A DNA stretch of 64,000 bases from Patescibacteria group bacterium (GTDB taxonomy: Bacteria > Patescibacteriota > Patescibacteriia > XYB2-FULL-38-15): NCBI GenBank assembly GCA_041653675.1, contig JBAZEY010000003.1:13284-77283 (forward strand). Direction: 5' to 3'. The notes below the pieces were generated by a model. It made no database searches and had not been told where the DNA came from. It saw nothing but the letters and a program-made list of their open reading frames with translations. Below are positions 1,832 through 53,264 of the stretch, piece after piece; the stretch's first letter is position 1; the number at the start of each line of letters is the position of its first letter. The translations under genes and the position numbers were made by a program.

Positions 1832-2821
1832 ATGAAAAATTTTTTTTTCGTGAGTACGCTCGCCGCTTTAATTTTTGCGCTAGCGCCGATTTCCGCATTT
1901 GCAATAACGGTTTCTCCGCCAATTATAGAATTTGATGCGCGGCCAGGAGACGTTATAGTGGATACTATAAAATTGTATAACGAAACAACAGAGGCCCAAA
2001 CTTTGAACGGGGCGGTGCAAACATTTAAAGCGTTAAATGAAACTGGCGCTCCCTCATTTCTTCCACCCGAGCAGTCGACTGATTTAGCGACTTGGCTAAA
2101 ACTCGATGAGTCCGCGGTTACCCTGAAGGCTGACGAGAGAAAAGATATTTTGTTTAGCATAAATGTTCCTGTTGATGCTGAACCGGGCGGCCATTATGCC
2201 GGAATTCTTTGGACGCCGGCTGGCACAACCACGCTTGAGGGCAGCGGGGTTGGTATCACCGTTAAAACTGGCACTTTGATTTTAGTCAGGGTCGCGGGTG
2301 ATATTACTGAAACAGGCCGGTTAATTAGTTTTACCGCCGACAAAACTTCTTACAATTATTTGCCCGCTAATTTTTCTGTCCGTTTTGAAAATTTAGGAAA
2401 CGTCCATTTGAAACCAGTTGGCACTATTGAAATCAGTAATTTATTGGGAAGAAAAGTTACCTCACTTCCGATCAACGGAGACCTGTCTAATGTCCTTCCA
2501 GATTCAATCAGAAAATTTGACGCGACTTGGCAAAAAACGGAAGAGCCTCTCGGCGCATCCGAATGGCAAAGAGAAAGAGAAAATTTTGCTTGGGGTAAAT
2601 ATACGGCGACTCTTAATTTAGATTACGGAGTGGAGGGGCAGAAAACTACGGCCTCACTTGTGTTTTGGGTTTTTCCGTGGCGCGTAACCCTTTTCTATCT
2701 CGCCATAGCTTTGGTCATAATTATTCTTATAATTATCGGTATCAAAAGTTACAATAAGTGGCTTATTAAAAAGTATAGCCAGGGAAATAGTCCGGTGGAT
2801 GATAAAAAGATTGAAGAATAG
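1832..2821 (+). CDS. Membrane-anchored cell-surface protein with DUF916/DUF3324-like architecture (N-terminal signal, C-terminal TM anchor)
   Basis: RBS GGGGGAAGG. Signal peptide, then ITVSPPIIEFDARPGD, and a C-terminal TM (FWVFPWRVTLFYLAIALVIIILIIIGI) followed by a basic tail. The size and topology match the CscA-type anchor proteins of WxL clusters. Family membership was not verified. Confidence 0.5.
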   Translation: MKNFFFVSTLAALIFALAPISAFAITVSPPIIEFDARPGDVIVDTIKLYNETTEAQTLNGAVQTFKALNETGAPSFLPPEQSTDLATWLKLDESAVTLKADERKDILFSINVPVDAEPGGHYAGILWTPAGTTTLEGSGVGITVKTGTLILVRVAGDITETGRLISFTADKTSYNYLPANFSVRFENLGNVHLKPVGTIEISNLLGRKVTSLPINGDLSNVLPDSIRKFDATWQKTEEPLGASEWQRERENFAWGKYTATLNLDYGVEGQKTTASLVFWVFPWRVTLFYLAIALVIIILIIIGIKSYNKWLIKKYSQGNSPVDDKKIEE

Positions 2822-2979
2822 TTCAATAATTTTATTGATGTCCTCTGATTTTTCGGAGGACAAAATAAGATCGTTGATGTTTCAAAAAACAAAAAACAAA
2901 AATCAAAAGTTATATTTTATTTTCTAGCTTCTCAAGCTTTTGACGTTTGTCTTTTGAGTTTTGAATTTATAGGAGGCGC

Positions 2980-7991: not shown

Positions 7992-10900
7992 ATGTTTAGT
8001 TCAGGAGGAGAAAAACCTAATATTAAATTACCATCCCAAAGCGGAACCAACTTAACTTTGTTGGTGTTTGCTTTGGGTATTTTGTCATTAGCAAGTATTG
8101 GAGTAATGACTCTTTCTGTTGTGAAACAACTTCGGCCGACAGCGTTCACGGCAATTAATAAACAGCTGAACTATCAAGGTAAATTACAAAACGCGGGAGG
8201 CATAACGCTCGCGGACGGAAATTACTCAATGAAGTTTTCCATTTACGACGATCCAACCGTCGGCTCGAGACTTTGGACAGAATGTGGCACAGTCGGTACG
8301 CCGACGGCTCGTACCGTCGCGGTTGCGAACGGGGTTTTCTCGGTGATGCTCGGAGATACAAATTCCAATTCTTGTCCCGGTGGAACGGATTCCAACGCCA
8401 TCACACTGGATTTTAATAGTGACAGTTATTATCTTGGTTTTACCGTGGAGTCCGATTCAGAAATGCTTCCGAGAAAACGATTGGGTGCTTCGGGTTACGC
8501 TTTCAACGCGGATTTATTAGACGGATTTAATACTTCAGCCGCCGGCGGTTCGGTCGCTTTCGTGCCGGTGACGGACGCAAGCGGACATTTAACTTTGACG
8601 CAAAATTTAATTTTGGGTGGAGTTTTAAAAAATGCAGACGGTACTGTCGGCGCGCCGAGCTATACCTTCACGAGCGACCTTGATACAGGACTTTATTATT
8701 CAGCGACACAAATAAATATTGGTGTCGGCGGAAGCACGGTGGCAAATGTAAGCGCTTCGGGTTTAGCCGTAGATACGGTCAAAACTTTAACCGCGACGAC
8801 TTTAACTTTAAAAGGCACGGTTGCCGACGGCGGAACAGCTGTTGGCGCGACGATTGGTTCCAACAGTACTCTTTCTACTACCGGCGCGAAACTTGCTTCC
8901 TTTGTAAACAACACTACTGAGAAAGCATATATAGATAAAGATGGTTATTGGAACGCCCCTAATGGTGCGGCTGGCACTCCTTCAATTACTTTTGCAAATG
9001 ATAAAGATAATGGATTTTTTTATTCTTCCGCTAATAATTGGCGGGCGGTTGCTAACGGAACTGCTATTTTAGAATTTGATGCAAGTGGCATTTATGTTGG
9101 TGGTTCAGGAAACATAGGGTCAGGTAATAATATTACTCTTACTCTTAAGAGTTTTCAGGTCGATGGTGCCGCAAATGTTGCAGTTGCTCAGGATACTTAT
9201 TATGCGTTTGTAACTGCTGGAGCTAAACTTTTTTCTTGGAAAAATCATCAAGTTGAAAAAGCATATGTTGATTATCTAGGCTCGTTCAACGCCGGAGCGG
9301 GGACAAATCTTTTACCAGCGTATTCGTTTGTTGGCGATCCAAATACTGGAATATATAATCCGAGTGCAGACCGTGTAGATTTAGTCGCAGGAGGAACCGT
9401 TCAACTCGCAATAACCTCTGGCACTATTTATTTTGATAATATGAGGGCTTTGAACTTGGTGAGTCTTGGATTAAGAGGGGCGATTGCCGACGGAGCAAGT
9501 GCGATCGGCACAAAAATGGGAAATGCTATAGCTCTTACCACTGCTGGAGCAAAGATTGTAAGTTTTTATAATGATGCTTGGGTAACTGAAAAAGCATATA
9601 TTGATAAAGACGGAAATTTTTATGGCCCCGGGGCAAATTTTTCCGGTCTCTCTGTCTCGTCGGCTGTTTATACCGACGCTTCAAAAAATTTAACTTCTAC
9701 AGCTCCGGCCACGGGCACGATTGGATATTGGTCCCGCGCCACGACAACTTTGTCTCCAGCTACAGCCAATGATATTGTCGCGGTCACCGGCAACTCCGGA
9801 GATCTTTTAACTTTAACTTCAACCGCAACCGGCGCTTCTAACAAAGCTTTAAGTATTGCCGCTTCCGGCGCAACAGTTGGCACAGATTACGGCGCATATA
9901 TTTCAAATACCGGCGCGGCCACAACAAATGTCGGTCTCTACACGACCGCCTCTGGCGCAACAAATAACTACGCTGCGATTTTTGACGCGGGGTATGTTGG
10001 TATTGGTAATACAACTCCAACAGCGTCTTTGACTTTAACTCAGGCTGCCGGCACGACTGGCACTCCCTCAGCTTTTATTATTACGGGGGGTGCTCACACC
10101 GGAATAACTGCGGCGACAGAAGATATTGGGGTGAATTTAAATTTTTCAGCGAATAAAACTTGGGCGGCCGGCGCCGGACCATTGGCCACTCAAAGGGAAG
10201 TCGTGGTTCAAGCCCCAACTTATATTGGTGATGTAGGCGGAGCATTGACCATGACTGATGCGGCGACATTCTATATCTCTGGTGCGCCTACGGCCGGGGC
10301 GAATATGACTATTAGTAATCCGTGGGCATTATGGATTGATGCCGGAAATGTTAGACTAGATGGAAATTTAAAAGTAGATTCACTTTCCGCTTCCTCCGCT
10401 GTTTATACTGACGCTTCCAAAAATTTAACTTCAACCCCGCCTGCTACGGGCGCGATCGGATATTGGTCTCGTACCGGCACGACTCTCTCTCCCGCGACGG
10501 CGAATGATGTGGTTAATGTCGATTCCAATACTGTGGGTGCAGCTATTAGTTCTACGGCGACGAATAGTGGCGCGGTTGCAAACTCTGGCGGTAATTTTTT
10601 GGCTGCCGGAACTAGCGGAGCAATGGGCGTTTATGGTGGCGCGAGCGGCGCTGGCACGGTTTACGGTGTTTATGGCCAAGCTTCTAATCCTGGGGCAGTA
10701 ACAAATTATGGTGTTTATGGAACGGCCGCCGGAGATACGGGCGTCGGTGTTTTTGGCTCTGCTACGGACACTGGCGCAGCTATAAACTACGGCGGTTACT
10801 TTACGGCCGCTGGAACGGGTGGCGCAGTTGGTATTTATAGTGAAGCGACTGGAACTGGCGGTGCGGCTGTTTCCGGTCTAGCTAGTGCTACTACCAGTGC

Positions 10901-17900: not shown

Positions 17901-17929
17901 TTGACAAAATGTTAAAAATATGCTATTAT
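17901..17929 (+). promoter_or_regulatory. Sigma70-like promoter (TTGACA-17-TATTAT) upstream of the GC-rich lipoprotein gene
   Basis: ttgaca aaatgttaaaaatatgc tattat. An AT-rich host-type promoter that abuts the GC-rich gene. Confidence 0.5.
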
Positions 17930-18059
17930 TAATTGTAAAATTAGAGATGGAGATTAAGTGAAATTTGCTTTAAAATAAAGGATAAAGCCAATTTCAGGTG
18001 ACCTTCAACTTTTGGAGAACAACCGTTCCGCGAGAGGGCGGAACAAGGAGGATTTAGTG

Positions 18060-18665
18060 ATGAAGACGACGATGATCGCGATGGTGCTTGTTTCCGTGTT
18101 CGCGACTGGCTGCTGGGATAGCTACCAGAACTACGGCGAAGACACTTCGCCCCTCGCGACTTGCGAGGTCGAGGTGACGACGAACGTGGTCGAGGTGGTG
18201 ATCACGGTGGACGGCGTCGTGATCGGTGGCGTTGCGGAACTCGCGACGGGCATGCACACTTTCGCTGCTACGGCTCCCGGGTATTACCCGGCAAGCGTGG
18301 TTGCGGAAGTAACCGAAGCATGCGCTCCGGTCGAACTCCAGCTCTTCCCGGATCTCGCCGGTGACTACGATCTCGTGCTACACAATAGCATCTATGATCG
18401 GCTGCTGCTCCACCTCGACCAGGATGAGGAAGGCAACCTCGTCGGCTACGACTGGTACACTGATGATCCGGGACACAGCTTCCAGGATTTCACCGGCACT
18501 GTTTCGTTCGATGGAGAAGTTCATCTCCTCTCGGACGATTCGGTCCGGCTGAATCTCACTGGCCGCTGGACTCCTCCGGGAATTGGTGGCGTCAGCCGTA
18601 TCGTCGGCAACTGGACCTCCGCTGCGGGAGGCGACGGAGACTGGCTCGCCGAGTCGCGACCGTAG
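18060..18665 (+). CDS. GC-rich lipoprotein with a PEGA-like domain
   Basis: RBS AAGGAGG 10 nt upstream. Lipoprotein signal MKTTMIAMVLVSVFATGC. The segment VVITVDGVVIGGVAELATGMHTFAATAPGYYPAS fits the PEGA pattern. About 60% GC against a roughly 40% background. Confidence 0.6.
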   Translation: MKTTMIAMVLVSVFATGCWDSYQNYGEDTSPLATCEVEVTTNVVEVVITVDGVVIGGVAELATGMHTFAATAPGYYPASVVAEVTEACAPVELQLFPDLAGDYDLVLHNSIYDRLLLHLDQDEEGNLVGYDWYTDDPGHSFQDFTGTVSFDGEVHLLSDDSVRLNLTGRWTPPGIGGVSRIVGNWTSAAGGDGDWLAESRP

Positions 18666-18676
18666 GTTACGACTCG

Positions 18677-18736
18677 AACCGGCATCTGGCAGAAATCGTG
18701 AAGAACGATTCTGTCGGATGCCGGTGTTTTTATTTC
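18677..18736 (+). terminator. Long imperfect hairpin plus T-run; copy 1 of a duplicated 58-nt element
   Basis: ccggcatctggcagaaatcg tgaagaa cgattctgtcggatgccgg followed by tgtttttatttc. Near-identical to 20278-20336. Confidence 0.6.
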
Positions 18737-18834
18737 AGAAAATCTAAAGAAGCACGCCTTGACTTTTGAGACATAATATATATGATAACGGCATAGATGG
18801 TCGGCTAGAGGTAGCCGACACAAGGAGGAGAAAG

Positions 18835-20184
18835 ATGAAAAAGGGGAACGGAAGGATCAAGGGGCTCTTTTTGATCGTCATCGCGACGATCGCGATTCTC
18901 GCCTATGCCGCTTGTGGCGACGACGAGCAGTTGTGTCCCAGCGCAGGGGACTGCATGGGACGGGAGTGCGGGCCGGATCCGGTTTGCATGACATCGTGCG
19001 GTGCATGCTCAATCGGAGAAGCATGTTCGGCGGACGGGATATGTATGCCGGACTGCGTGTCCAACTGCGCCGGCCGCGAGTGCGGATGGGACCCGGTCTG
19101 CGGCAACATGTCTTGCGGGACATGCCCGGCGGATCGGCCCAACTGCAATGCCACTACGGGGACTTGTTCGACTGATGGCCCGGATTGTCCGGCAGACCGC
19201 GACTGCGCCGGCCGCGAGTGCGGCCTCGATCCAATCTGCAGCGTTTCCTGCGGGACGTGTTCGGGCGGTGAGACGTGCAGTTCATCAGGAAGATGTGTTT
19301 GCGCTCCCAACTGCTCCGGCCGCGAGTGTGGGCTTGACCCAGTTTGTAGCGTCTCCTGCGGGACGTGTTCAAGCCCAGAGACATGCACTCCATCTGGAAC
19401 GTGCAACTGTACCAGGAACTGCGCCGGCCGTGAATGTGGTCCCGATCCGATTTGTGGCGTTTCCTGCGGCTCGTGTTCAGCTGGCTCATGCACCACGACG
19501 GGCACGTGCACCACGTGTTCATCCGGCGCAACGGAGTCGTGCGCCAATCTTTGCGGTTCGGCTGGCACGCGGAGTTGTAGTGTTTCGGGCGAATGGGGGC
19601 GGTGTCAGGGTGGGACTGCTCTGGTTCCTGTGGCTCTTACGGATGACACCTACATCGACAACGACCCCCCAACTGTCAACCACGGAACCGAAGAATTCGT
19701 GATCATAGGAAAGGGCGTTGCCGCTGACCCACGTCGCCTAGCATTCTTCCGTTTTGATGCGGATTTGGATACGTGGCGGGCGGAGGGCGCCACGTCGATA
19801 ATTCAGGCCGACCTGAGCGTATACGTGAGTGACCGCTTAGGCAGTCAACTTGAACTCTATGGTCTCTCAAATACGACCGGTGGTACTTGCGTGTGGAATG
19901 AAGATACACTGACGTATTACACCCAAGTCACCGCAGGAAGCACGAACTGCTATCCGGACCCGCTTGGCTGGGTCTACCCCGACATTTCGATGATTGTGGA
20001 TTACTCGATGGGCTACGTGGATATCACGGCGTATGTCCAGTGGCTTTGGGACGGCGCGGAGAACGACGGCTTCATGTTGACGAACAATTCGGGGAGTTCC
20101 ACTCCGTTTGCACGGTTGATTATCAACAGCACCGAGAATTCCCGGGATCCACCGAGCGTTTTGGTGAGAGTATCCTGCGAATAG
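18835..20184 (+). CDS. GC-rich secreted/lipoprotein: about 7 Cys-rich repeats (C..GRECG.DP.C..SCG.CS) plus a C-terminal DNRLRE-like domain
   Basis: RBS AAGGAGGAG. Signal LFLIVIATIAILAYAAC. Repeats such as DCAGRECGLDPICSVSCGTCSGGETCSSSGRC. The C-terminal domain carries the DNRLRE-family landmarks (DDTYIDNDPPTVNHG..., RLAFFRFDADL, WNEDTLTYYT, VDITAYVQWLWDGAENDGFML, INSTENSRDPPSVLVRV). Confidence 0.6.
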   Translation: MKKGNGRIKGLFLIVIATIAILAYAACGDDEQLCPSAGDCMGRECGPDPVCMTSCGACSIGEACSADGICMPDCVSNCAGRECGWDPVCGNMSCGTCPADRPNCNATTGTCSTDGPDCPADRDCAGRECGLDPICSVSCGTCSGGETCSSSGRCVCAPNCSGRECGLDPVCSVSCGTCSSPETCTPSGTCNCTRNCAGRECGPDPICGVSCGSCSAGSCTTTGTCTTCSSGATESCANLCGSAGTRSCSVSGEWGRCQGGTALVPVALTDDTYIDNDPPTVNHGTEEFVIIGKGVAADPRRLAFFRFDADLDTWRAEGATSIIQADLSVYVSDRLGSQLELYGLSNTTGGTCVWNEDTLTYYTQVTAGSTNCYPDPLGWVYPDISMIVDYSMGYVDITAYVQWLWDGAENDGFMLTNNSGSSTPFARLIINSTENSRDPPSVLVRVSCE

Positions 20185-42167: not shown

Positions 42168-42173
42168 ATATTG

Positions 42174-42202
42174 TTGACATTTTTTAATTTATTTGGAATA
42201 AT
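42174..42202 (+). promoter_or_regulatory. Sigma70-like promoter (TTGACA-17-AATAAT) driving the GC-rich element between uvrA and uvrB
   Basis: ttgaca ttttttaatttatttgg aataat. Confidence 0.45.
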
Positions 42203-42475
42203 TTTGTTATACGGTTTTGGTTTGCCACTTCGGCGAACCACCGTCCGAGGAAAGAAGGAGGTGGGAAGAACGGAGATGGAGAAGCGGTTCTCGCGGTTCG
42301 GCCTGCTGGACAAGGGCCAAGCGACGGCGCAGTCGGCGTGATGCGGTGATCCCGCTGGAGGTGAATGTCGGGGCACCCCTGACACGGGACGGAATTTCGT
42401 CGGTCAGCGGCTAACGGCCGCAACAGAAATGTGAGCCGGCGGGAAATTCTGGCAGCTCCGCAAGTCAAACCTTTC

Positions 42476-44500
42476 CTATGGCCCCGGGACGTGCTTCGGC
42501 GCGTTTCGGGGTTTTTTTAATTCTTTAATTTCATCCCGTAGTAATGCCGCCAGTTCGAATTCAAGCGCTTGCGCCGCGGCCTTCATTTGTCCTTCCTTCT
42601 CTTTTATAATTTCTTCAATATTTTTTCCTTTTTCGCCGATAACATCCAGATCCAAAATATTTTTAACTTTTTCTTTTGAAATTTCTTCGCCGACAATATC
42701 TTTTATTTTCTTTTGGATCGTCTTCGGAGTGATGCCGTGTTTTTTGTTATATTCCGTTTGTCTTTTTCTTCGGCGTTCGGTTTCGTTGATGGCGCGTTCC
42801 ATTGAGCCAGTCATTTGATCGGCATAAAGGATAACTTGGCCGCGAACATTGCGGGCTGCTCGCCCGATTGTCTGGATGAGTGAAGTTTCACTTCGCAAAA
42901 ATCCTTCTTTATCCGCGTCTAAAATTGCGACAAGCGTCACTTCCGGTAAATCCAGTCCTTCGCGCAATAAATTCACACCAACTAAAATATCAAATTTTCC
43001 TCGGCGGAATTCAGTCAAAATTTTTATCCGGTCCAATGTTTGCACTTCGCTATGAATATAATTAACTTTGAATTTTTTCTCCGCGAGATATTCGCTTAAA
43101 TCCTCGGCCATTTTTTTGGTTAGAGTTGTGACAAGGACGCGTTCGTTTCGTTTCACGCGATCGGCGATTCGTTCCATCAAATCATCAACCTGGGATTTTT
43201 CATCTTTGTTTTTTGGTGTGATAGGTTTAACAATAATTTCCGGGTCAATAAGGCCGGTTGGCCGGATTATTTGCTCAACGATTTGTCCACTTTTAGTTAA
43301 TTCATAATCAGCCGGCGTGGCTGAAGTATAAATTGTCTGTGGCACTCTTTTTTCAAATTCACTAAATTTCAGCGGCCGGTTGTCGGCGGCGGAAGGCAGG
43401 CGAAAACCAAAATCAACCAACGCCCGTTTCCGCGAAGCATCGCCTTCGTACATTCCGGAAAGCTGCGGCACGGTGACGTGTGATTCATCAATTACCATTA
43501 ACCAATCCTTATTTTTTCCAAAATAATCGAGCAAAGTTTCTGGCGGTTCGCCCGCGGCGCGGCCAGAAAGATGCCGTGAGTAATTTTCAATTCCGTGGCA
43601 GTAGCCGACCTCTTTAATCATTTCCAAATCATAATTTGTCCGACGTTCCAATCTTTCCGCTTCAAGCAATTTTCCATTTTTATTAAAATATTCCAAGCGG
43701 TCTTTTAATTCCGCTTTGATAGTTTTGAAAGCTCGTTCGCGTTCCGGGCCGAGGGTGACAAAATGTTTGGCTGGAAAAATCCAGACGTCGGTCGGTTCAT
43801 CTTTTATTTTTCTTGTCACCGGATCAATAGCAAAAATTTTCACGATTTTTTGTGCGCTTGATTCCACTCGATAAATAATTTCTTGGTTCACGGGCATTAT
43901 TTCTAAAGTTTCGCCACGCAAACGAAACTCGCCACGCTTTAAATCGGAATTTGTCCGATTGAATTGCATGGTGATGAGTTGGCTTAACAAATCAGTGCGG
44001 GTGATAACTTGATCTTTGGCCAAATGTAAAACTATTTTTTGATAAGTTTCCGGAGCACCCAAGCCGTAAATGCAAGAAACCGAAGCGACAATAATCACGT
44101 CGCGTCGTGTTAAAAGCGCCTGGGTCGCGGCGTGGCGGAGGCGATCGATCTCATCATTGATCATCGCTTCTTTTTCAATATAAGTGTCGGTCCGCGGCAA
44201 GTATGCTTCGGGCTGGTAGTAATCATAATAAGAAACAAAATATTCCACGGCATTGTCCGGAAAAAATTCGCGGAATTCATTGCAAAGTTGCGCCGCCAAA
44301 GTTTTGTTGTGAGCAATAACGAGCGTGGGTTTATTGATTTTCGCGATAACATTCGCCACGGTAAAAGTTTTTCCTGAACCAGTGACACCCAAAAGTGTTT
44401 GATGGGCGTGATTTTTTTTCAAACCATTAACAAGTTCGGCGATTGCTTTGGGCTGATCGCCGGCGGGTTTAAATTTTGATTTTAATTTGAATTTGTCCAT
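42476..44500 (-). CDS. uvrB: Excinuclease ABC subunit B
   Basis: Helicase motifs (GVTGSGKT, DESH), beta-hairpin and a C-terminal UVR domain. Confidence 0.95.
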   Translation of the reverse strand: MDKFKLKSKFKPAGDQPKAIAELVNGLKKNHAHQTLLGVTGSGKTFTVANVIAKINKPTLVIAHNKTLAAQLCNEFREFFPDNAVEYFVSYYDYYQPEAYLPRTDTYIEKEAMINDEIDRLRHAATQALLTRRDVIIVASVSCIYGLGAPETYQKIVLHLAKDQVITRTDLLSQLITMQFNRTNSDLKRGEFRLRGETLEIMPVNQEIIYRVESSAQKIVKIFAIDPVTRKIKDEPTDVWIFPAKHFVTLGPERERAFKTIKAELKDRLEYFNKNGKLLEAERLERRTNYDLEMIKEVGYCHGIENYSRHLSGRAAGEPPETLLDYFGKNKDWLMVIDESHVTVPQLSGMYEGDASRKRALVDFGFRLPSAADNRPLKFSEFEKRVPQTIYTSATPADYELTKSGQIVEQIIRPTGLIDPEIIVKPITPKNKDEKSQVDDLMERIADRVKRNERVLVTTLTKKMAEDLSEYLAEKKFKVNYIHSEVQTLDRIKILTEFRRGKFDILVGVNLLREGLDLPEVTLVAILDADKEGFLRSETSLIQTIGRAARNVRGQVILYADQMTGSMERAINETERRRKRQTEYNKKHGITPKTIQKKIKDIVGEEISKEKVKNILDLDVIGEKGKNIEEIIKEKEGQMKAAAQALEFELAALLRDEIKELKKPRNAPKHVPGP
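42482..42518 (+). terminator. Rho-independent terminator ending the GC-rich transcript (overlaps the last uvrB codons on the opposite strand)
   Basis: ccccgggacgtgcttcggcgcgtttcgggg followed by ttttttt. Confidence 0.55.
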
Positions 44501-44630: not shown

Positions 44631-44659
44631 TTGACAAATGATATTTTCTGGCCTAAGAT
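44631..44659 (+). promoter_or_regulatory. Promoter (TTGACA-17-TAAGAT) for the GC-rich cNMP-binding gene
   Basis: ttgaca aatgatattttctggcc taagat. Confidence 0.45.
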
Positions 44660-44700
44660 GGGTAATCACGAACAAAAAGGGAGGGAAGGGAGGACTGATC

Positions 44701-45555
44701 GTGAGTGAAGAAACGAATGGTTGCCAGGGTAGTGAGCCCGTGGTCGAGGACAGATCTGAAAATTGCGTCCCTGGCGTCGAAGAAGACGGGGGAAGCAGCG
44801 AAAGGCAGTGCGATACTCTTGAGGGTTTGACGCAGTCGAAGGCGCTTGCCGCTTTTCTCGGGCAGCTCAAGATTGTGGAGATCCCTCCGGGCGGACGCCT
44901 TTACCAAGAAGGCGACCTCATCTCGCAAGTCTGCTACATCGTGAGCGGCAGGGTCGAAGTCAAGGCGACCGGTGAATTGATCGCCACAGTAGAAAAGGGC
45001 GAGCTGCTTGGGCTGGAAGAATTTCGTTACCGCAAGGAGAGCCCGAAATATACCCAAGAAGCGGTAGCTGTTCTGCCAACCTCGGTTGTCTGGCTGGATA
45101 ACGAAGGCCTAAGGACAGTCTTGGACTTGAACGCGGATTGTTTGGCGGCCTACGTTCGGCTACAGGCCAGAGTGAAGAGGGCGATCGAAAAGAAGCTCGG
45201 CCAGCTCAAGATAGACAAGAGCAAGCTGGAGGTTAGGGTTGCCCGACTGGGGGTAGCTTTGGGAGCAACCCAGGAGCAGCTCGTCAAGCTGCAAAAGCCG
45301 CCGCAGCCGCCTCCACCGCCGCGCAAACCTCTTCCATCAACAGCACTTCTTGGAAAGTTGGATGAAGCGCGTCGGGTTATTCGCGAGATGGGCCAGCTTT
45401 TCGTCGCGAGGGCCACAAACCTCAAGAAACTGCTCGTGGCTTTGCACGAGTTCGCCACGAAACATCCAGACTGGGCCAAACAGGAGGATTTCGTCGCGTT
45501 CAAGAAGAGCTTCGAAGGGCTTGTAGAACGTGATTCTCAATTCAAGGTGCCGTGA
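44701..45555 (+). CDS. GC-rich cyclic-nucleotide-binding domain protein with coiled-coil and Pro-rich segment
   Basis: GTG start with RBS AGGGAGGA. cNMP-binding fold (YQEGDLISQVCYIVSGRVEVKATGELIATVEKGELLGLEEF...). PPQPPPPPRKP linker. Confidence 0.6.
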   Translation: MSEETNGCQGSEPVVEDRSENCVPGVEEDGGSSERQCDTLEGLTQSKALAAFLGQLKIVEIPPGGRLYQEGDLISQVCYIVSGRVEVKATGELIATVEKGELLGLEEFRYRKESPKYTQEAVAVLPTSVVWLDNEGLRTVLDLNADCLAAYVRLQARVKRAIEKKLGQLKIDKSKLEVRVARLGVALGATQEQLVKLQKPPQPPPPPRKPLPSTALLGKLDEARRVIREMGQLFVARATNLKKLLVALHEFATKHPDWAKQEDFVAFKKSFEGLVERDSQFKVP

Positions 45556-45600
45556 AGCGGCACGAGCCGGACACTTTCAAGAGGTGTCCGGCATTTTATT
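45548..45600. terminator. Double hairpin bidirectional terminator
   Basis: gtgccgtgaagcggcac plus gccggacactttcaagaggtgtccggc followed by attttatttt. Confidence 0.6.
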
Positions 45601-45693
45601 TTATAACTTAATTATTAAATTTTTATAAAAAAATTCTGCCGCGGCTTGTGGCTTTGGCAGAATGGTGAAAACGATGGCGGCTGCTCGAGTTCG

Positions 45694-46449
45694 TTACCCG
45701 CAGCCGATTGGCGGGCACTTCACGGCAGTCCAGATTCCGAGGTTGTCGCCACTTGGCGAAACGATCGCTTCGCCCGTGACGTGCGTCTCGTCCGTAAAAT
45801 GGCCGACGTAACTTGTGCTGCCCGACGAGAAATTGATTTGCCGGCCATGGATCGTTGGCTCGTAGTAACTCGAGATGGCAGTAATGTCTCGGCCAGTTTG
45901 GCTGGCGTAGACGGCGACCGGAAAGGGGAAAGTTGCCCCGCTTAGTTCCCAGGCGCCTTCAGCGTTGATGACACTTTTCACGATGTGCGGCGCACTGCAG
46001 ACTTCCGGTTGGCAATCAACACAGCCTGCATCAATCGCCTCGCAGTCGTTCGTCACGCAAGCTGTGACAGTAGCCTCTGGTTCTGTATCACCGCCGAGGT
46101 CAAGAATGTCAGCCGTGGTTTGGACGAGCGTCATGGCTTCTCGCCGCGTTTCGATTGACGCTTCAATGGGTGCGAGACTCACAAGCGACGAATCGGAAAC
46201 GCGCCACTCCACGTCCTTGATCAGGATTCCATCGGAATTGTAGACGTAGGCGTGGAGTTTGTAGGCGTCGGCGTTCGTGGTGTCGCCGGTTGGCACGGGA
46301 GAAACGTTGGCTTCCGTGCTCGGAGTGCAATCCGAGACGATCGCCACAGCCATGGCGACACTCGAGTCGTTGGGACAGCGTTCGATGAACTCGTTCCGGC
46401 AGCCGAGCGCCATCACGAAAAGAACCGCAATCATCATCTTCGTTTTCAT
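45694..46449 (-). CDS. GC-rich lipoprotein, possibly Ig-like (Big_2-like) fold
   Basis: RBS TAAGGAGGA with promoter TTGAAA-16-TAAAAT on the minus strand. Lipoprotein signal MKTKMMIAVLFVMALGC. Multiple Cys pairs. Confidence 0.5.
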   Translation of the reverse strand: MKTKMMIAVLFVMALGCRNEFIERCPNDSSVAMAVAIVSDCTPSTEANVSPVPTGDTTNADAYKLHAYVYNSDGILIKDVEWRVSDSSLVSLAPIEASIETRREAMTLVQTTADILDLGGDTEPEATVTACVTNDCEAIDAGCVDCQPEVCSAPHIVKSVINAEGAWELSGATFPFPVAVYASQTGRDITAISSYYEPTIHGRQINFSSGSTSYVGHFTDETHVTGEAIVSPSGDNLGIWTAVKCPPIGCG

Positions 46450-46516
46450 CTGTATCCTCCTTACTGATTTTATTTTAACAAACTAAAAATAAATTTCAAA
46501 ATTTATAAAATAAAAA

Positions 46517-46560
46517 AAGGGGCTTCCGCGCGGCGTTACGAAACACCTTGCGGAAGCCCT
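46517..46560 (-). terminator. Strong Rho-independent terminator (minus strand)
   Basis: gggcttccgcaaggtgtttcgtaacgccgcgcggaagcccc followed by tttttttatttt on the minus strand. Confidence 0.7.
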
Positions 46561-47140
46561 TGGTCCCTTGGGAGTTATCCTCCAGATTTCTCCTTTGAAT
46601 CTCTCCCGGGAGTCCTTGGTCAGGCGCCCTTGCCCAACCTCATCGGGGAGTTAACCCCGTCTGGTAGCCCGTTTTTTCCCATCGGGCTCGGGGCGGCATT
46701 TTTAGACCGGAGTGACTGACATGCTAGCCAGCACGCGATCTTAACGAGGTAACCGCCGCTTTTCACTGCGTTTACGGCGCCGCGCTTGTGACGGCGATTG
46801 CAGCACCCCGACGGGTCTGCTGATTCTGGTCTTGGGGCGCATTCCATTTTGTCCCCAAAACTCTGGTTGCCCGTCCACCAGGGATCAGACGATTTATATT
46901 GCCGCGCCGTCTGCCAGGGCGCTTTAACCCTCCGCTCTGATCTCCTTCCCTTGGTAGCGAAGATGTGGAGCCGCCGGTTATCTACCTCAATCGAAGCACG
47001 GCTCCGATCGCGCCGTTTTGCGGGCACTGGTTATCTCCGAGCTCAAACCAATCCCGCCCCCGGGTAGACGAATTTATGTCCGCGCCAGCCTACCTTTGGC
47101 GCTCTGCCGATACATCCCCGTGCCACCACCTCCTTCTGTG
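46561..47140 (-). other. About 600-nt GC-rich non-coding block ending at the terminator
   Basis: No ORF with protein-like composition in any frame (only Arg-rich artefactual ORFs). Many local hairpins. It is contiguous with the GC-rich island and could be a structured RNA or a decayed coding remnant. Confidence 0.3.
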
Positions 47141-47473
47141 AAGAAAAACAAATTATTTATTTATCTTCATAGAAGGAAATAGGCGCAGAGAATTTTTAAG
47201 GTTAGTATAGATCTATTTTTTTGTCAAGAGTTTCGGAAAAAACAAAGAAAGGCCACTTGGCCCTCCTTGTTAATATATTTTAATATTAACTTTAAGAACA
47301 GCAGGAACAGCCTTTTAATCTCTTCGTGTGCTTCCGCAATTCTTTGCCCTTTTTGGTATTTTTAAGAGCGTGTTTTGTTCTGGCTTTCGCCGCGCTATTT
47401 TGTCCCATATTATTTAACTATTAATGATTTAATGAATTAATTTTGTCATATTGTCGGTAAGTCGTCAACTCCA

Positions 47474-48595: not shown

Positions 48596-49039
48596 TTATT
48601 TTATTCCGCGTTCGTTAAAAAAATCAGTGTAGTGTTTGTCTAGAGAAATGACGTGGCGCAAAAGCCAGTCTATGGCAAAATCGGAAAGATCGTGGGCGAT
48701 TTTTTTTACGTCCGCGTTCGGACTTTGCGCTTTGGCTAAAAATTCTTTTATTGTTTCACGATAGCGATTATGTTCGGCAACGTGAAGTTCTTGCTCGGGA
48801 AATTTATATGCTTCAAAATAAGTTTCTTCAGAGGAAAAGTGGAGTGAGGCGTAATTGCTAAACTCAATTAAGCTCATTAAGATTTTTTCCTGACTGACCC
48901 CGTCCTGAATAGAGAGGACATCAATCTGATTTGCGAGATCGATATAACGTTTGTGTTGGTCGTCAAAAGTTTTTACGCCGACGCTGTAATTTTCGTTCCA
49001 AATAAAAGGCATATTTTTAAAATAAAGTTTTATTATCAA
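48596..49039 (-). CDS. Bacteriohemerythrin-like protein
   Basis: FxWxxxYSVGxxxFDDQHKRYI, HFSSEE, HxxxH and a C-terminal HV motif consistent with hemerythrin metal ligands. Confidence 0.65.
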   Translation of the reverse strand: MIIKLYFKNMPFIWNENYSVGVKTFDDQHKRYIDLANQIDVLSIQDGVSQEKILMSLIEFSNYASLHFSSEETYFEAYKFPEQELHVAEHNRYRETIKEFLAKAQSPNADVKKIAHDLSDFAIDWLLRHVISLDKHYTDFFNERGIK

Positions 49040-49109
49040 GCGAGCGATGATAACATGAAGTATTGATTAAAATTTATCACTTTATATATTTTTTGTAAAT
49101 AAAAAAACC

Positions 49110-49138
49110 TTGACAAATTTTTAGAAAAATATTATTGT
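49110..49138 (+). promoter_or_regulatory. Canonical promoter TTGACA-17-TATTGT
   Basis: ttgaca aatttttagaaaaatat tattgt. Confidence 0.5.
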
Positions 49139-49192
49139 TTATAGTCCGAATTGGTTTTGGCACGCAACCCATTCCTGGAGAAGGAGGAGAGG

Positions 49193-49465
49193 ATGGACAA
49201 GAGGTTCACGGATCTGACGCGCGAGGGAAGGATTCGACTGAGGGACTTCCTCCTGGCGCACGCCGAGAAGGGCGAGGAGGTCGTCGCGATCAAGGAGGTA
49301 CCGGTCGAAGGGAGGGCGCGTGTGGCCTTCGAGGAAGGCGAGCTCATCTGCGTTTCCCCCGTCTTCGTGGTCGAGGCGACCAAGAAGGAGATCTGGGTGT
49401 GCCACGCGTGGGACACCGAAGGGATTGTCCTCTGCCCCGATTACCCCTGCATCGTGCGGGTGTAG
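49193..49465 (+). CDS. GC-rich orphan small protein (90 aa), unknown function
   Basis: RBS GGAGAAGGAGGAGAGG then ATG. About 62% GC. Terminator ggccacctgaaacatggtggcc plus T-run at 49478-49515. Confidence 0.5.
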   Translation: MDKRFTDLTREGRIRLRDFLLAHAEKGEEVVAIKEVPVEGRARVAFEEGELICVSPVFVVEATKKEIWVCHAWDTEGIVLCPDYPCIVRV

Positions 49466-49534
49466 CGCCCGCGAACAGCACAACCAATCTGGCTCCTGGC
49501 CACCTGAAACATGGTGGCCTTATTTTTTTATAAT

Positions 49535-50274: not shown

Positions 50275-51024
50275 TTAGTAAATAACCACGGCTTTTTTAT
50301 CAAGCAGCTCCCAGTTTTTTAAAAAATCTTTTACCGTTAATCTTATCTCGCCGTAAATAGGATCTAAAAGGATCATTAATTTTGGATTGTCCGAGTTGCC
50401 GGTAAAACCAATTAATGTCCGAGCATGTTCATCCAGCTGGGCATTAATAATTTTTCCTTCGGGAGTTGTCCAAGATATATCTTTGGTTCTGCCAACTATT
50501 TTTCCCCAAACTACGATCGGATTATTATTTGTTAATTCTGTTATCAAATCATTCAGCGTTCCGTTGGCAATAATTTTTGCCGATCGGTATTTTGAAGCTA
50601 GATCATAAATCGGTTGTTCGTAAACGCCATAGCCGGTATTTGGCATTGCACCGTCGATGTTGCCGACAAAACCTAAATTAGGATCGCCCCAGATATTATT
50701 TTGATGGCGCGGCTCCGGATCGGAAATAGGCAACTGCTGAATTAATTCGCTTTCCGTAACTTTTATTCCTTTGTAGTTTAAGGCCATCAGCAAGGAAGCA
50801 ATTTCACAAGAGAGCGCATGTTCCTGGCGGTGGTAGGGGACAGCTAGATCAACCGCCGGTTTAATTGGTATAATAACGCGTTCAATCTGGTAGTAAATTT
50901 TTTTGACAACACTTACTTTCCCCTTAACACTATCTATCGTCAGCTCAAACACCAACCAGGCAATCAATAAAACAACTATCACCAGTAATAGCAAAAGACG
51001 TATTTTTTTTATTTTTTTAAACAT
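50275..51024 (-). CDS. Secreted peptidase C39-like (papain-fold) domain protein
   Basis: Signal anchor. YHRQEHALSCEIASLLMALNY matches the C39-like catalytic Cys context. Confidence 0.45.
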   Translation of the reverse strand: MFKKIKKIRLLLLLVIVVLLIAWLVFELTIDSVKGKVSVVKKIYYQIERVIIPIKPAVDLAVPYHRQEHALSCEIASLLMALNYKGIKVTESELIQQLPISDPEPRHQNNIWGDPNLGFVGNIDGAMPNTGYGVYEQPIYDLASKYRSAKIIANGTLNDLITELTNNNPIVVWGKIVGRTKDISWTTPEGKIINAQLDEHARTLIGFTGNSDNPKLMILLDPIYGEIRLTVKDFLKNWELLDKKAVVIY

Positions 51025-51029
51025 AGTGG

Positions 51030-51521
51030 TTAGATGTTATAAAAATCAAAATCTTGAGGTACAGATAAGGCGTCCATGTTCATTTTATTGTTTTTCTCAA
51101 AATTACATTCCATTATGATATTACAGGCTTTTCTAAAATCATCATATAAATCTTCAGCCACCAGTATAAGTTGGCCATTAACTATTTTGAGGTGATAATT
51201 GCCGTATCTTTTTGCTTCTTCTCTGTGTGTTAGACCGATATTGTGTTTGGGTAATAATGCATGGGTCATGCCATTTCGAAGAGAGTCACATAGATTAAAT
51301 TGGCTATTAAACGGAATGTATTTTGGCATGAGCTCATTTATGGCCATGTTGAAGTGAATTGCGGAAAAGCCGCTCTGCTGCCAAGATCTATTTTCGTCTA
51401 AACATTTACCGAGAAATTCTATTCCGATTCCAATTAAAACAAAAGACAAATAAGGATATTTATAAGAAATTTGTCTGTATTGTTCTAGAAAAGTGATTCT
51501 GATAAATTCTTTTGGCAACAT
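51030..51521 (-). CDS. Hypothetical protein
   Basis: ORF only. Confidence 0.3.
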   Translation of the reverse strand: MLPKEFIRITFLEQYRQISYKYPYLSFVLIGIGIEFLGKCLDENRSWQQSGFSAIHFNMAINELMPKYIPFNSQFNLCDSLRNGMTHALLPKHNIGLTHREEAKRYGNYHLKIVNGQLILVAEDLYDDFRKACNIIMECNFEKNNKMNMDALSVPQDFDFYNI

Positions 51522-51585
51522 AAGATTTTTTTATAATTTCGTCTGGCTGGTTTATTATACGAACTAGTATATTTTAATTATACTC

Positions 51586-51650
51586 TATTTCCCAAAACCA
51601 AAACACCTCCAGCAAAGGAGATGTTTTAGTGGGGTCGCGTAGTGGAGGTT
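51586..51650 (-). terminator. Copy 1 of a duplicated terminator element (conserved flanks, compensatory stem changes)
   Basis: tatttcccaaaaccaaaacacctcc...tagtggggt is shared with 52087-52133. The stem is acatctcctttgctggaggtgt here versus acacctctctaaaaggaggtgt in copy 2. Confidence 0.5.
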
Positions 51651-51781
51651 GTTAGAACTTTTTTCGGGGATAAGCAATTTTCCATTCCTTGCTTGGAGGA
51701 ATATCTTGACAGAAAAATTTTTGTATGTTAATTTAACCTGTCCATCCGAAATTAAGGTCGGTTGAGGATAAGGAGGGCAAC

Positions 51782-52036
51782 ATGAGGCTCCGTGAAGTGC
51801 GAATCGGGATGCGGGTGAAAGTGACGCGGCTCGGAAGCACGGAAGGCATGGCCGTTAAGCCAAAATATCTGCAGGCACGCCGACTTGGCGCTCGCGGCAA
51901 GATCATGAACTACATCGCCGGCCACGGTGGCGATTGTTGGTGGATCCGGCATGACGACGGAACGATCGGCGGCTACGGCTACATGGAATTCCAGCGCGTC
52001 CGGTCAAAGCGTCGGACCGGGGAGCGGACCAAGTAG
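51782..52036 (+). CDS. GC-rich small protein (84 aa), SH3/KOW-like and possibly DUF1918-like
   Basis: RBS TAAGGAGGG. Motifs IGMRVKVTRLG...GKIMNYIAGHGGDCWWIRHDDGTIGGY. About 62% GC. Terminator at 52055-52090. Confidence 0.5.
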   Translation: MRLREVRIGMRVKVTRLGSTEGMAVKPKYLQARRLGARGKIMNYIAGHGGDCWWIRHDDGTIGGYGYMEFQRVRSKRRTGERTK

Positions 52037-52129
52037 CCGCATACTTCACGCAGTTAGACCTCTGCAGAACAAAAGGTCTTTTTTTTATTTCCCAAAACCA
52101 AAACACCTCCTTTTAGAGAGGTGTTCTAG

Positions 52130-52204
52130 TGGGGTGGCTACTGGGAGTTGAACCCAGGCTAGCGGGACCACAACCCGCTGTTCTACCGTTAAACTATAGC
52201 CACC
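52130..52204 (-). tRNA. tRNA-His (GTG) with encoded G-1 and CCA
   Basis: G-1 pairs with C73. Acceptor GTGGCTA/TAGCCAC. Anticodon loop TTGTGGT. T-arm CTGGG TTCAACT CCCAG. Confidence 0.85.
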
Positions 52205-52213
52205 ATTAAATTC

Positions 52214-52288
52214 TGGTGACCCCAGCAGGAATCGAACCTACATCTTCACCTTAGAAGGGTGTTGCTCTGTCCATTGAGCTATGGGGCC
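52214..52288 (-). tRNA. tRNA-Arg (TCT) with encoded CCA
   Basis: Acceptor GGCCCCA/TGGGGTC. D-loop with GG. Anticodon loop CTTCTAA. T-loop TTCGATT. Confidence 0.8.
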
Positions 52289-52346
52289 GTAATGCGAAAA
52301 AAGTATTTTTTATTTTAACAGAAATTTTTGCCGCTGTCAAGAATCT

Positions 52347-53264
52347 TTATTTGCCGCGTTGGCGGCCGTGAAAACTTTTATGGACGTCACGGAGTTGTTG
52401 ATTTGTAATATGCGTATAAATTTGAGTTGTTGTAATAGATGAATGGCCGAGCATGGCTTGGACCGAACGGATGTCGGCGCCATTCATTAATAGATCAGTG
52501 GCATAAGAATGACGCATAGTGTGCGGCGTAACTTTTTTTGTGATGCCGGCAATCTTGGAATATTTTTTCACAAGCCGTTCCACGCTCCGGGGAGTGAGAG
52601 CTCCTTCACTCTCGTGCGCTCGGTCATGGGAAACAAACAAAAATGGTGAAACATCTTGGCGTCCCTCTAAATATTGTTTGATCCAGAATTTCGCCTGGTT
52701 TGATAAAAAGACTATGCGCGGTTTGTCGCCCTTGCCGCGAACCGTGAATTCTTCTTTTTTCAAATTGACTTGTTCCTTTTTTAAATTTGCCAACTCGGAA
52801 ACGCGGAGTCCCGTAGAAAAAAGCATTTCCACAATGGCCTTATCTCTTTTTTTGATAATTTCTGGCGACTCGGTCAAGGTCGGCGCTTCAAGAATTCGTT
52901 CCAAATCAGATCCTTCCAAAAAATCCACCACACGTTCGGGCATTTTTCCCAATTCAATTTTTTCCGCCGACATTGTTTTGATGTCGCGCTTGGCCAGATA
53001 TTTCAGAAAAGCTCGGAGAGCGATCAGATGGTAATTTTGAGTATTTTTTTTCAGGGTGCGGCCGTGCTCGTCGGCAAAACGATTTAGCCAAAGCCGGTAT
53101 TGCCGGACTTTTTCCTGGGTAATGCCGGAAGGGGAAGTGTCTCCCGCCCATTCGTTAAATCTTTTCAAATAAAAATCATAATTCCGCACAGTTTTGGATG
53201 AACGGTTTTTTTCTATTTCCAGATATTCAAGAAATTGGGTTATTAGATTGTTGAGGTTGGCCAT
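52347..53264 (-). CDS. Tyrosine recombinase XerC/XerD family
   Basis: N-terminal SAM-like core-binding domain. Catalytic HTMRHSYATDLL...LGHSSITTTQIYTH. Confidence 0.85.
   Translation of the reverse strand: MANLNNLITQFLEYLEIEKNRSSKTVRNYDFYLKRFNEWAGDTSPSGITQEKVRQYRLWLNRFADEHGRTLKKNTQNYHLIALRAFLKYLAKRDIKTMSAEKIELGKMPERVVDFLEGSDLERILEAPTLTESPEIIKKRDKAIVEMLFSTGLRVSELANLKKEQVNLKKEEFTVRGKGDKPRIVFLSNQAKFWIKQYLEGRQDVSPFLFVSHDRAHESEGALTPRSVERLVKKYSKIAGITKKVTPHTMRHSYATDLLMNGADIRSVQAMLGHSSITTTQIYTHITNQQLRDVHKSFHGRQRGK

Follow-up and report, generated by a model that had tools for sequence, protein, structure and literature searches.

This study concerns a 64,000-nucleotide stretch of DNA (hereafter the window; 43% GC) from a Patescibacteria (candidate phyla radiation, CPR) genome and, within it, a duplicated hairpin-forming repeat that lies at the 3' end of a tRNA-His gene and encloses a small GC-rich gene for a protein of 84 amino acids (aa). 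Along the minus strand, the locus starts with a tyrosine recombinase gene, followed by a promoter-like site, tRNA-Arg, tRNA-His and the tRNA-proximal copy of the repeat (R2). Beyond R2 come the 84-aa open reading frame (ORF) on the plus strand, the distal copy of the repeat (R1), an orphan ORF of 163 aa and a C39-like peptidase gene. A preliminary description of this DNA had read the arrangement as a small site-specific integration that brought in the GC-rich gene. The features on which the analysis builds are the following.

52347..53264, minus strand: Xer-family tyrosine recombinase, 305 aa (Pfam Phage_integrase and SAM-like N domain)
52312..52340, minus strand: promoter-like site of the tRNA-Arg/tRNA-His unit (TTGACA, 17-nt spacer with TG, TAAAAT; 11/12 matches)
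52214..52288, minus strand: tRNA-Arg(TCT) (ARAGORN; Rfam 67.7 bits)
52130..52203, minus strand: tRNA-His(GTG), intact (ARAGORN; Rfam 65 bits)
52086..52138, minus strand: module copy R2, tRNA-proximal (repeat search, folding, alignment)
52097-52130, minus strand: R2 hairpin, with the last base of tRNA-His as part of the stem
52086-52110, minus strand: invariant 25-nt block of R2
51782..52036, plus strand: gene of an 84-aa protein with a predicted SH3 fold, foreign in composition (ORF, alignment, AlphaFold2, Foldseek)
51659-51671, minus strand: short conserved 'arm' (alignment with relatives)
51630-51658, minus strand: tRNA-His-3'-like segment (ACCCCA and a diverged acceptor/T-loop part with extra T-loop bases)
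51586..51638, minus strand: module copy R1, distal (hairpin 51597-51630; invariant 25-nt block 51586-51610)
51549..51585, minus strand: AT-rich extension (GGTTTATTATACGAACTAGTATATTTTAATTATACTC), conserved in 7/8 aligned copies, which precedes the next gene
51033..51521, minus strand: 163-aa ORF, 33% GC, strain-specific and inserted precisely between the module and the start of the C39 peptidase gene
50275..51024, minus strand: C39-like peptidase gene (Pfam Peptidase_C39_2), the first conserved gene past the array

The duplicated repeat and the recombinase beside it

A repeat search delimited two copies of 53 nt each, R1 and R2, with 83% identity and a start-to-start spacing of exactly 500 bp. 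Both begin with the same 25 nt (TATTTCCCAAAACCAAAACACCTCC), a sequence with no third occurrence in the 64 kb and 0 matches in 100 shuffles. The repeat is no product of chance and lies at the end of the tRNA, as the preliminary description had it, except that the second copy begins at 52086 instead of 52087. R2 indeed adjoins tRNA-His and contains the last 6 nt of the tRNA (ACCCCA). R1 carries the same ACCCCA and then 23 further nt (51636-51658) that resemble the T-loop and the 3' acceptor strand of tRNA-His; ACCCCACTA forms the core at the tRNA end, identical in both window copies. On the minus strand, that of the tRNAs, both copies are predicted to form a hairpin with a 14-bp stem and a folding energy of -24 kcal/mol (z -4.5 to -5.5), and R2 is presumed to terminate the tRNA unit. 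A strict terminator scan called neither hairpin, so that the word terminator is used here as an interpretation. No further hairpin module was found in the remaining ~60 kb of the window, and Rfam, run on the window at the gathering threshold and on 51400-52400 at E<=10, returned tRNAs only.

The tyrosine recombinase directly after the tRNAs, which the preliminary description had considered as a possible integrase of the inserted element, belongs to the Xer family. In NCBIfam, it exceeds the cutoff of XerA_Arch (244 bits against 220), while the top hits, XerC (252 bits) and XerD (247 bits), stay below their equivalog cutoffs. The integron integrase models, whose cutoffs are 265 and 435, reach only 127 and 76 bits and match no more than the C-terminal ~70 residues. 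We scanned related loci in one genome per species and kept the best 80, all from metagenome-assembled genomes (MAGs) of Patescibacteria, across which Xer identity ranges from 60 to 92%. Among the 30 loci scanned for tRNAs, tRNA-Arg lies downstream of xer in 28 and tRNA-His in 21, and few of those with tRNA-His repeat its 3' part. Since xer keeps its position in these loci, most of which are free of this duplication, the gene encodes a conserved, syntenic housekeeping-type Xer and not a cassette-borne integrase, and the idea of an element integrase is not borne out. Neither a canonical dif site (within 3 mismatches) nor a second Xer paralogue is present in the 64-kb window, and a generic 11-6/8-11 dyad search gave nothing informative beyond the terminator hairpins.

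Module arrays in related genomes

Module-bearing relatives were located by scanning metagenomes for a 22-mer taken from the repeat and by a look-up of the C39 peptidase. Exact-word matches in L086 (the coding region of an unrelated contig), L096, L101, L102 and L104-L106 were dropped as chance. The layouts of the informative loci, with their L numbers and the identity of a flanking protein to that of the window, are given below.

L001 (Xer 92%) and L002 (Xer 87%): tRNA-His, then one hairpin; no duplication
L087 (Xer 96.6%): C39, R1, GH3 hydrolase, R2, tRNA-His
L088 (Xer 86%): weak R0, DUF7670, R1, S-adenosylmethionine (SAM) methyltransferase, R2, tRNA-His
L085 (partial contig): C39, RA, small ORF and DUF7670 membrane protein, RB, GH3, continuing
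L107 (C39 96%): C39, Ra, DUF7670, Rb, GH3, Rc, DUF5320 with DUF134 and YibE_F, Rd, at least 5 small ORFs, the last unit running to the contig end
L108 (C39 82%): GH3, 130-aa protein, 103-aa protein and methyltransferase genes, contiguous and without modules

Five genomes or contigs thus contain the module, from two to four or more times each, always in one orientation and downstream of tRNA-His; none was found elsewhere in the relatives' loci, nor in the other ~9 kb of L107. The promoter motif of the tRNA unit is also present in L001 and L002, the two loci with a single hairpin. In L085, L087 and L107, an orthologue of the C39 peptidase gene stands beside the array. Its start directly adjoins the module there, and the 163-aa ORF, which has no Pfam or NCBIfam match, is absent. 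Cargo differs even between close relatives (Xer 96.6% in L087, C39 peptidase 96% in L107), and in the relatives it is not GC-rich and is oriented in the tRNA direction, unlike the 84-aa gene of the window. The preliminary description had named the same arrangement around sequence that is not GC-rich as the observation that should count against its proposal, and this is what L087 (GH3) and L088 (methyltransferase) present. As the same two modules flank other cargo, the duplication is not confined to the GC-rich gene. The idea of an attachment-site-like duplication at the tRNA-His 3' end is upheld by the five arrays with variable cargo, while that of the GC-rich gene as its cause has to be given up: judging from these layouts, the duplication is older than that gene and is the mark of a cassette array with its anchor at the 3' end of tRNA-His.

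We therefore favour, with a probability of roughly 0.55, a site-specific cassette array at tRNA-His that is served by a recombinase in trans, comparable to cis-mobilizable elements (CIMEs) or tycheposons, and later reshuffled between modules. Mechanistically, the two repeats in the window would delimit the tRNA-proximal unit within a small array, with the 3' end of tRNA-His as its anchor (the attB- or attI-like side). Units would enter, via a circular intermediate, by site-specific recombination between the tRNA-His 3' end with its trailer hairpin and a look-alike pseudo-tRNA with hairpin on the incoming DNA, the crossover falling in or beside the shared ACCCCA(CTA). Insertion would keep tRNA-His intact, supply a new trailer hairpin and push the older trailer and units away. 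Since the units encode no recombinase, the enzyme would be supplied in trans, the candidates being an element-borne integrase, such as a large serine recombinase, the neighbouring Xer and an integrase that has since been lost. Recombination of module with module would then delete and shuffle units, and in the window slot a 'moron-like' unit, convergent on the tRNA, would probably have replaced the interior of an earlier one. What the analysis shows are the repeats, the make-up of the module, the arrays with their variable cargo, hybrid modules, and the foreign composition, fold and phage contexts of the 84-aa gene; we infer the enzyme, the crossover point, the circular intermediate and the terminator and promoter roles.

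The module itself measures ~100-170 nt. In the tRNA direction it consists of the arm (...ATC.C.GAAAAAAG), the tRNA-His-3'-like segment (GTTCTAACAACCTCCACTACGCG-ACCCCA, against GGGTTCAACTCCCAGTAGCC-ACCCCA in tRNA-His), the hairpin, the invariant stretch GGAGGTGTTTTGGTTTTGGGAAATA and, as a rule, ~37 nt of AT-rich extension before the next gene. The descending arm of the hairpin and its U-rich tail do not vary. The 25-nt block is conserved at 25/25 positions in four copies that come from two genomes with no more than 86% identity in Xer, while the loop and the ascending arm differ (10/18) with pairing kept. The resemblance of the pseudo-tRNA to tRNA-His was assessed with an anchored shuffle, which gave p ~0.014 for the window and 0.004-0.16 for the other copies; an unanchored local alignment of the two was not significant. 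A further idea, that GTTCTAAC in the pseudo-tRNA is a remnant of the 'LEP' codons of a serine recombinase, was rejected because order and frame do not fit.

The origin of the pseudo-tRNA separates the cassette array from a more conventional account. Nine distal copies from five genomes or contigs have all diverged from the tRNA, none with an intact or fresh 3' part; seven of the nine have the extra T-loop bases in common, and the peptidase-side copy (RA in L085, Ra in L107) is more diverged. L088 is particularly instructive. Its R1 joins pseudo-tRNA and arm to a hairpin of the window type, and its R0, the oldest copy, has the same pseudo-tRNA and arm (both pseudo-tRNAs share CACGCAG) joined to a different trailer, one that hardly differs from the native trailer behind tRNA-His in L002; the joint falls between GA and CCCC. 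The divergence of all nine distal copies and the different trailers of R0 and R1 argue that the pseudo-tRNA is part of the repeat unit and not a freshly displaced tRNA end. Together with the L088 joint, the diverged copies point to a crossover at or next to the shared ACCCCA(CTA), in which case an incoming unit would carry a look-alike of the tRNA-His/trailer junction.

The conventional account would start from one old island at tRNA-His, with an integrase of the tyrosine or large serine type and a T-loop crossover, so that the distal pseudo-tRNA would be the displaced 3' part of the chromosomal gene. The integrase would have been lost and the remains altered by later duplication, gene conversion, deletion and unrelated insertion, the GC-rich moron included, with no ongoing cassette traffic. 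It follows the textbook route, in which a regenerated target and a displaced fragment mark the ends of an island (PMC4383910). The homology of R1 to the tRNA ends in the T-loop, the borders of the GC-rich cassette are out of register, and the variants of the pseudo-tRNA group by genome, a pattern that gene conversion would produce. Intact serine-recombinase elements at tRNA-His in three related loci also fit. Against it, none of the nine distal copies looks like a recently displaced functional 3' part; the same L088 pseudo-tRNA is followed by two different trailers, one of them of the native L002 type; and arrays of four or more units require repeated events. We consider a single decayed island unlikely.

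The three elements just mentioned lie in L001, L007 and L010, where large serine recombinases of 538-542 aa are convergent on tRNA-His (L001 7094-8710 and L010 7661-9289, both on the minus strand; L007 ~2419-3972, minus strand), with frames that run through the trailer into the 3' half of the tRNA. Those of L001 and L010 have Resolvase, Recombinase and Zn_ribbon_recom domains, and small orphan ORFs follow the gene in L001. These loci are probably intact integrative elements, and the way in which the recombinase genes abut or overlap the tRNA-His 3' end shows that the site is used by such elements. Looking for traces of the L001 recombinase in the window turned up nothing but the antisense of the tRNA and hairpin, and a comparison of this protein with viral contigs gave nothing closer than 21-33% identity.

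Returning to the cassette array, recombination between modules would explain one of the copies in L087. The left part of its R1 is like RA of L085 (32/36 in the AT-rich extension, 25/25 in the block) and the right part like RB (28/31 in the pseudo-tRNA). The hybrid is the product expected from a recombination of RA with RB that would have deleted the DUF7670 unit. The window slot also bears signs of rearrangement. The predicted terminator of the GC-rich gene abuts TATTTCCC directly, R2 is without the AT-rich extension present in relatives, and the arm is reduced to 13 nt. With the extension absent at R2 and most of the arm gone, the GC-rich unit looks like a later replacement in an existing slot, and probably took the place of the interior of an older unit.

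A different proposal would have the module itself spread, as a terminator-plus-promoter repeat derived from the tRNA-His trailer and copied between resident genes, with homologous recombination then deleting genes. L108, in which the GH3, 130-aa and methyltransferase genes stand side by side without modules, suits this proposal, as do the module inserted after GH3 and ahead of DUF7670 in L107, the deletion hybrid in L087, and cargo that, apart from the 84-aa gene, is co-oriented with the tRNA and made up of ordinary Patescibacteria genes. Against it, all copies lie within a few kb of tRNA-His, cargo order varies between genomes, the window slot carries a clearly foreign gene, and no transposase-like ends or target duplications are evident. 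We regard spreading of the module as distinctly unlikely.

The lack of recombinases in the units, together with a conserved recombinase gene that adjoins the anchor, also invites comparison with integrons, the reference being the chromosomal cassette arrays of Vibrio with their VCR repeats. The likeness lies in short, mostly co-oriented and recombinase-less cassettes, ~100-nt repeats with imperfect hairpins and a fixed start near a tyrosine recombinase gene; four modules in L107 and two or three in L088 and L085 display this co-oriented layout, while the window holds a single cassette in the opposite orientation. Xer hijacking by integrative elements is known, as are plasmid modules flanked by Xer sites. 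In an integron-like scheme, the adjacent Xer would insert the units, and hairpin plus pseudo-tRNA, with the 11-6-11 geometry of the R1 hairpin, would serve as an attC or dif-like site. The recombinase, however, is not of the IntI type (127 bits against 265, matching at the C-terminus only). The hairpins are there, but inspection of their flanks revealed none of the RYYYAAC/GTTRRRY boxes (R''/R') of attC sites and no dif-like dyad at the joint. The array is anchored at a tRNA end, the module contains promoter-like sequence, and the recombinase gene is co-directional with the array instead of divergent. Moreover, most of the 80 loci with xer-tRNA synteny are without arrays, and large serine recombinases demonstrably use tRNA-His. 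Capture by the neighbouring Xer in an integron-like manner is, in our judgement, quite improbable.

A bolder version of the cassette array would make the tRNA-His 3' end the docking site of a gene-capture platform, at which recombinase-less units of 1-3 genes, each with a ~100-nt site of pseudo-tRNA-His and hairpin that mimics the tRNA-His/trailer junction, are inserted and excised singly by a host recombinase in trans, Xer being the most interesting candidate. We regard it as rather improbable.

Several observations weigh against the cassette array served in trans. Beyond ACCCCA, the pseudo-tRNA is only modestly similar to tRNA-His (p 0.004-0.16 per copy). Gene conversion, suggested by the clustering of variants by genome, could mimic element-borne ends. 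The off-register borders of the window cassette mean that its entry may have been illegitimate. No core dyad of a tyrosine recombinase is visible around the joint on inspection of the sequence, and none of the 9 or more units seen contains a recombinase. The L001 element lies downstream of a native-looking hairpin, a joint different from that of the cassettes. Finally, the contiguous genes of L108 show that cargo of the GH3 and methyltransferase kinds also occurs as ordinary neighbours.

The 84-aa gene and other GC-rich units of the window

The GC-rich ORF between the two copies is real, as the preliminary description had proposed. It has 61% GC, with a GC content at third codon positions (GC3) of 0.74 against 0.38-0.46 in eight host genes. 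Two further features belong to it.

51706..51776, plus strand: expression signals of the 84-aa gene (read from sequence)
52056..52086, plus strand: terminator-like hairpin (AGACCT...AGGTCT) with a T7 run, which ends the 84-aa gene and abuts R2

The putative promoter consists of TTGACA (51706-51711), a 17-nt spacer with TG, and TAATTT (51729-51734), in the same style as that of the tRNA unit. A pattern search for TTGACA-N16-18-TAnnnT lists it, while a stricter promoter scan does not. A Shine-Dalgarno sequence, AAGGAGG, lies at 51770-51776. At the other end, the hairpin reaches only -6.2 kcal/mol (z -0.7), which makes for a weak terminator assignment. The ATG at 51782 is favoured as the start by the alignment of the family and by the AAGGAGG in front of it; the public 75-aa annotation, which starts at Met10 and leaves out 51782-51808, therefore probably starts too late.

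A HMMER scan of 1.84 billion representatives retrieved 430 relatives at E<=1e-3, 98 of them at E<=1e-10 (all of these being cluster representatives), with the consensus ...LGST.GM.V....L..R..G..G.V..YVPGHGGDVWWV.HDDG..GAY...EFE. A word-index search with the protein found only itself. The family occurs mostly in high-GC phage contigs. Its members are found among consecutive small genes of phage type, together with DUF3310, endonuclease VII and a DNA methylase, and in seven IMG/VR contigs (54-63% GC) they lie beside Erf-like, RecE-like and SbcC-like genes and a DNA ligase. Among the isolate phages of INPHARED, neither the 84-aa ORF nor a second GC-rich ORF of the window (104 aa, described below) has a homologue. 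A 74-aa ORF of L107 with a 'YPDEDG' motif, considered as a further member of the SH3 family, was discarded (hhalign probability 0.2%).

The AlphaFold2 model of the protein is of high confidence (predicted local distance difference test 92, predicted template-modelling score 0.80) and has strands at residues 11-14, 38-44, 52-57, 62-66 and 70-72, the five-stranded barrel of the SH3 type. Foldseek matched it to YorP, PetP and many SH3 domains at a probability of ~1 (E 1e-3 to 5e-2), in agreement with the SH3-like fold first suggested for this ORF. The match to YorP of prophage SPbeta (2heq) has E 1.4e-3 and a TM score of 0.57, and phage DUF4314 proteins match at E ~1e-3. YorP, DUF4314 and other small SH3-fold phage proteins are thus like the 84-aa protein in size and fold, but in sequence it has no significant match in Pfam, PHROG or NCBIfam. 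This includes PF08940, so that the suggested likeness to DUF1918 does not hold; no Pfam family reaches E<=0.01 for the ORF, nor, stray single hits aside, E<=0.1 for any of 40 family proteins (the ORF and 39 others).

In phages, a moron is a promoter-gene-terminator unit of deviant composition. The unit at 51706-52086 is similar, with a predicted sigma-70-type promoter, one ORF, a weak terminator-like hairpin, deviant GC content and a family that is carried by phages. We thus describe it as a self-contained, foreign, phage-family 'moron-like' transcription unit with predicted signals. Unlike a phage moron, it occupies a bacterial chromosome slot at a tRNA, outside any recognisable prophage, with tRNAs, xer, the C39 peptidase gene and an orphan ORF as neighbours.

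So abrupt a change in composition raises the question of an assembly artefact, in which the GC-rich 0.45 kb would be a chimeric join at the shared 25-mer. The source is a MAG, the insert has the exact 25-nt repeat at one side and a very different composition, and the 84-aa protein occurs in only two records, probably from the same data. The other border, on the contrary, is unique sequence running into the module arm, the cassette uses the host promoter style (TTGACA-N17 with TG), a second GC-rich insert of the window has a clean empty site in L107, and independent assemblies present the same two-module layout. We hold a chimeric join to be highly improbable.

The second insert (49024-49523) is again a single-gene unit, of exactly 500 bp. 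Its 104-aa ORF (49151-49465) has 62% GC, GC3 0.86 and no family match, and comes with a TTGACA promoter (49110), AGGAGG and a hairpin with a T-run. The insert is bounded by an imperfect direct repeat of ~20 nt (TAAAATTTATTTATCAAA-like), and in L107 hemerythrin and helix-turn-helix genes are adjacent at the empty site. A third unit, GC-rich (~60%) and ~300 nt long, lies between uvrA and uvrB (42170-42520), with TTGACA-N17-AATAAT upstream and a strong hairpin with a T-run at its end (fold z -3.1). Its only ORF has 21 codons behind AAGGAGG. The unit has no Rfam match and could represent a small RNA or encode a leader peptide. The blocks of genes at 17901-20184 and 44631-47227 are also GC-rich (55-60% GC), and each stands behind a consensus TTGACA-N17-TAnnnT site; the window has 13 sites of this kind, 5 of them in front of GC-rich genes. 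The GC-rich gene at 45700-46026 is conserved in L002 with ~80% aa identity.

Known systems and other duplications at tRNA genes

Taken globally, the locus is a variant of a tRNA-anchored island or cassette array in an under-studied phylum. As in islands of the Islander type, an intact tRNA is accompanied by a direct repeat of its 3' part at the far end, the repeat being modest beyond 6 nt; the integrase that such an island contains is missing here, with only the 84-aa SH3-like ORF between the repeats. As in CIMEs, attL- and attR-like ends are kept while integration and transfer genes are absent, assuming that the repeats function as sites.

CIMEs and tandem accretion at tRNA genes are known (PMC5704250), as are ssrA islands with and without integration modules (PMC3146451). 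The CIMEs related to ICESt1 and the ssrA islands of Dehalococcoides likewise use the 3' end of a small-RNA gene as anchor and have direct repeats of this 3' part between units; in them too, the newest unit lies beside the intact gene, some units are free of integration genes and unit number varies between strains (PMC5704250, PMC3146451). The ~540-aa serine recombinases that run into the tRNA end in the relatives repeat the design of dsiB at ssrA in Dehalococcoides (PMC3146451). In contrast to those systems, the units here measure 0.45-2 kb with one to three genes, and an integrase is found in 0 of 9 or more units. Their repeat is a composite of 100-170 nt (pseudo-tRNA, hairpin and AT-rich leader) instead of a 20-nt exact tRNA end, and the pseudo-tRNA appears to be borne by the unit and not displaced from the tRNA.

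The tycheposon islands of Prochlorococcus have partial tRNAs between successive integrations (10.1101/2020.12.28.424599). They resemble the present arrays in the streamlined genome, the position next to a tRNA, partial tRNAs as separators, integrase-less remnants and strain-variable cargo. Tycheposons are, however, 10-20 kb long, with an inward-facing integrase and often a replication module; the arrays contain no such genes and we do not count them as members.

Patescibacteria have very small genomes, and how they gain and exchange accessory genes is poorly understood. The locus presents a compact, repeat-delimited array at one tRNA, whose content varies between strains ~93-97% identical in their flanking genes and which can hold clearly foreign, phage-related genes. 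If units move singly with a recombinase in trans, this would be a simple route of gene flow, a convergent counterpart of integrons and tycheposon islands; if the gene-capture platform were true, it would amount to an integron-like system made of different parts in minimal-genome organisms. On a conservative reading, the module is still a handy marker for strain-variable cargo in Patescibacteria metagenomes.

Duplicated 3' parts of tRNAs around small inserts beside xer are found in further loci. Two involve tRNA-His. In L015 (6114-6730), a Komeilibacteria genome with 69% Xer identity, ACCCCA and a hairpin are repeated ~510 nt downstream: a convergent ORF of roughly 100 codons (read by eye, frame tentative), with its own TTGACA promoter and terminator, is followed by a second copy of ...GACCCCA plus hairpin, the same design having arisen separately. 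In L031 (7416-11080), the 3' end of tRNA-His recurs 3.65 kb downstream as an exact 19-nt repeat, and the insert has an apparent reverse-transcriptase-like ORF (9461-10480), so named from sequence appearance alone.

Duplications of the tRNA-Arg 3' part occur in L031, L036, L061, L007 and L088. In L031 (7083-7325) and L036 (7306-7545), tRNA-Arg(TCT) is followed by a GC-rich insert of ~125 nt and a 40-42-nt repeat of the tRNA 3' part, which begins in the anticodon loop and is identical at 100% (L031) or 97.6% (L036). The two inserts are homologous, with stem-preserving changes (GCATTTC...GAAATGC against GCGCATCCGC...GCGGACGCGC), and may be a structured RNA or an intron-like element; Rfam found only tRNAs and rRNA in L015, L031, L036, L061 and L088. 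Inserts of 95-170 nt with tRNA-Arg 3'-part repeats were also seen in L007 (1906-2090), L010 (7132-7420), L088 (6413-6581) and L061 (7128-7440), the hairpin GCGCACCCGCCTCTGGCGGG being common to L007 and L010. L010 in addition has a duplicated 5' half of tRNA-His upstream of the real gene. In L103 (2620-2660), an IMG/VR phage contig with a 17-tRNA array, a 17-nt exact match to the pseudo-tRNA segment (TGGAGGTTGTTAGAACT) lies inside a hairpin directly after the phage tRNA-His, and may reflect chance or a shared motif.

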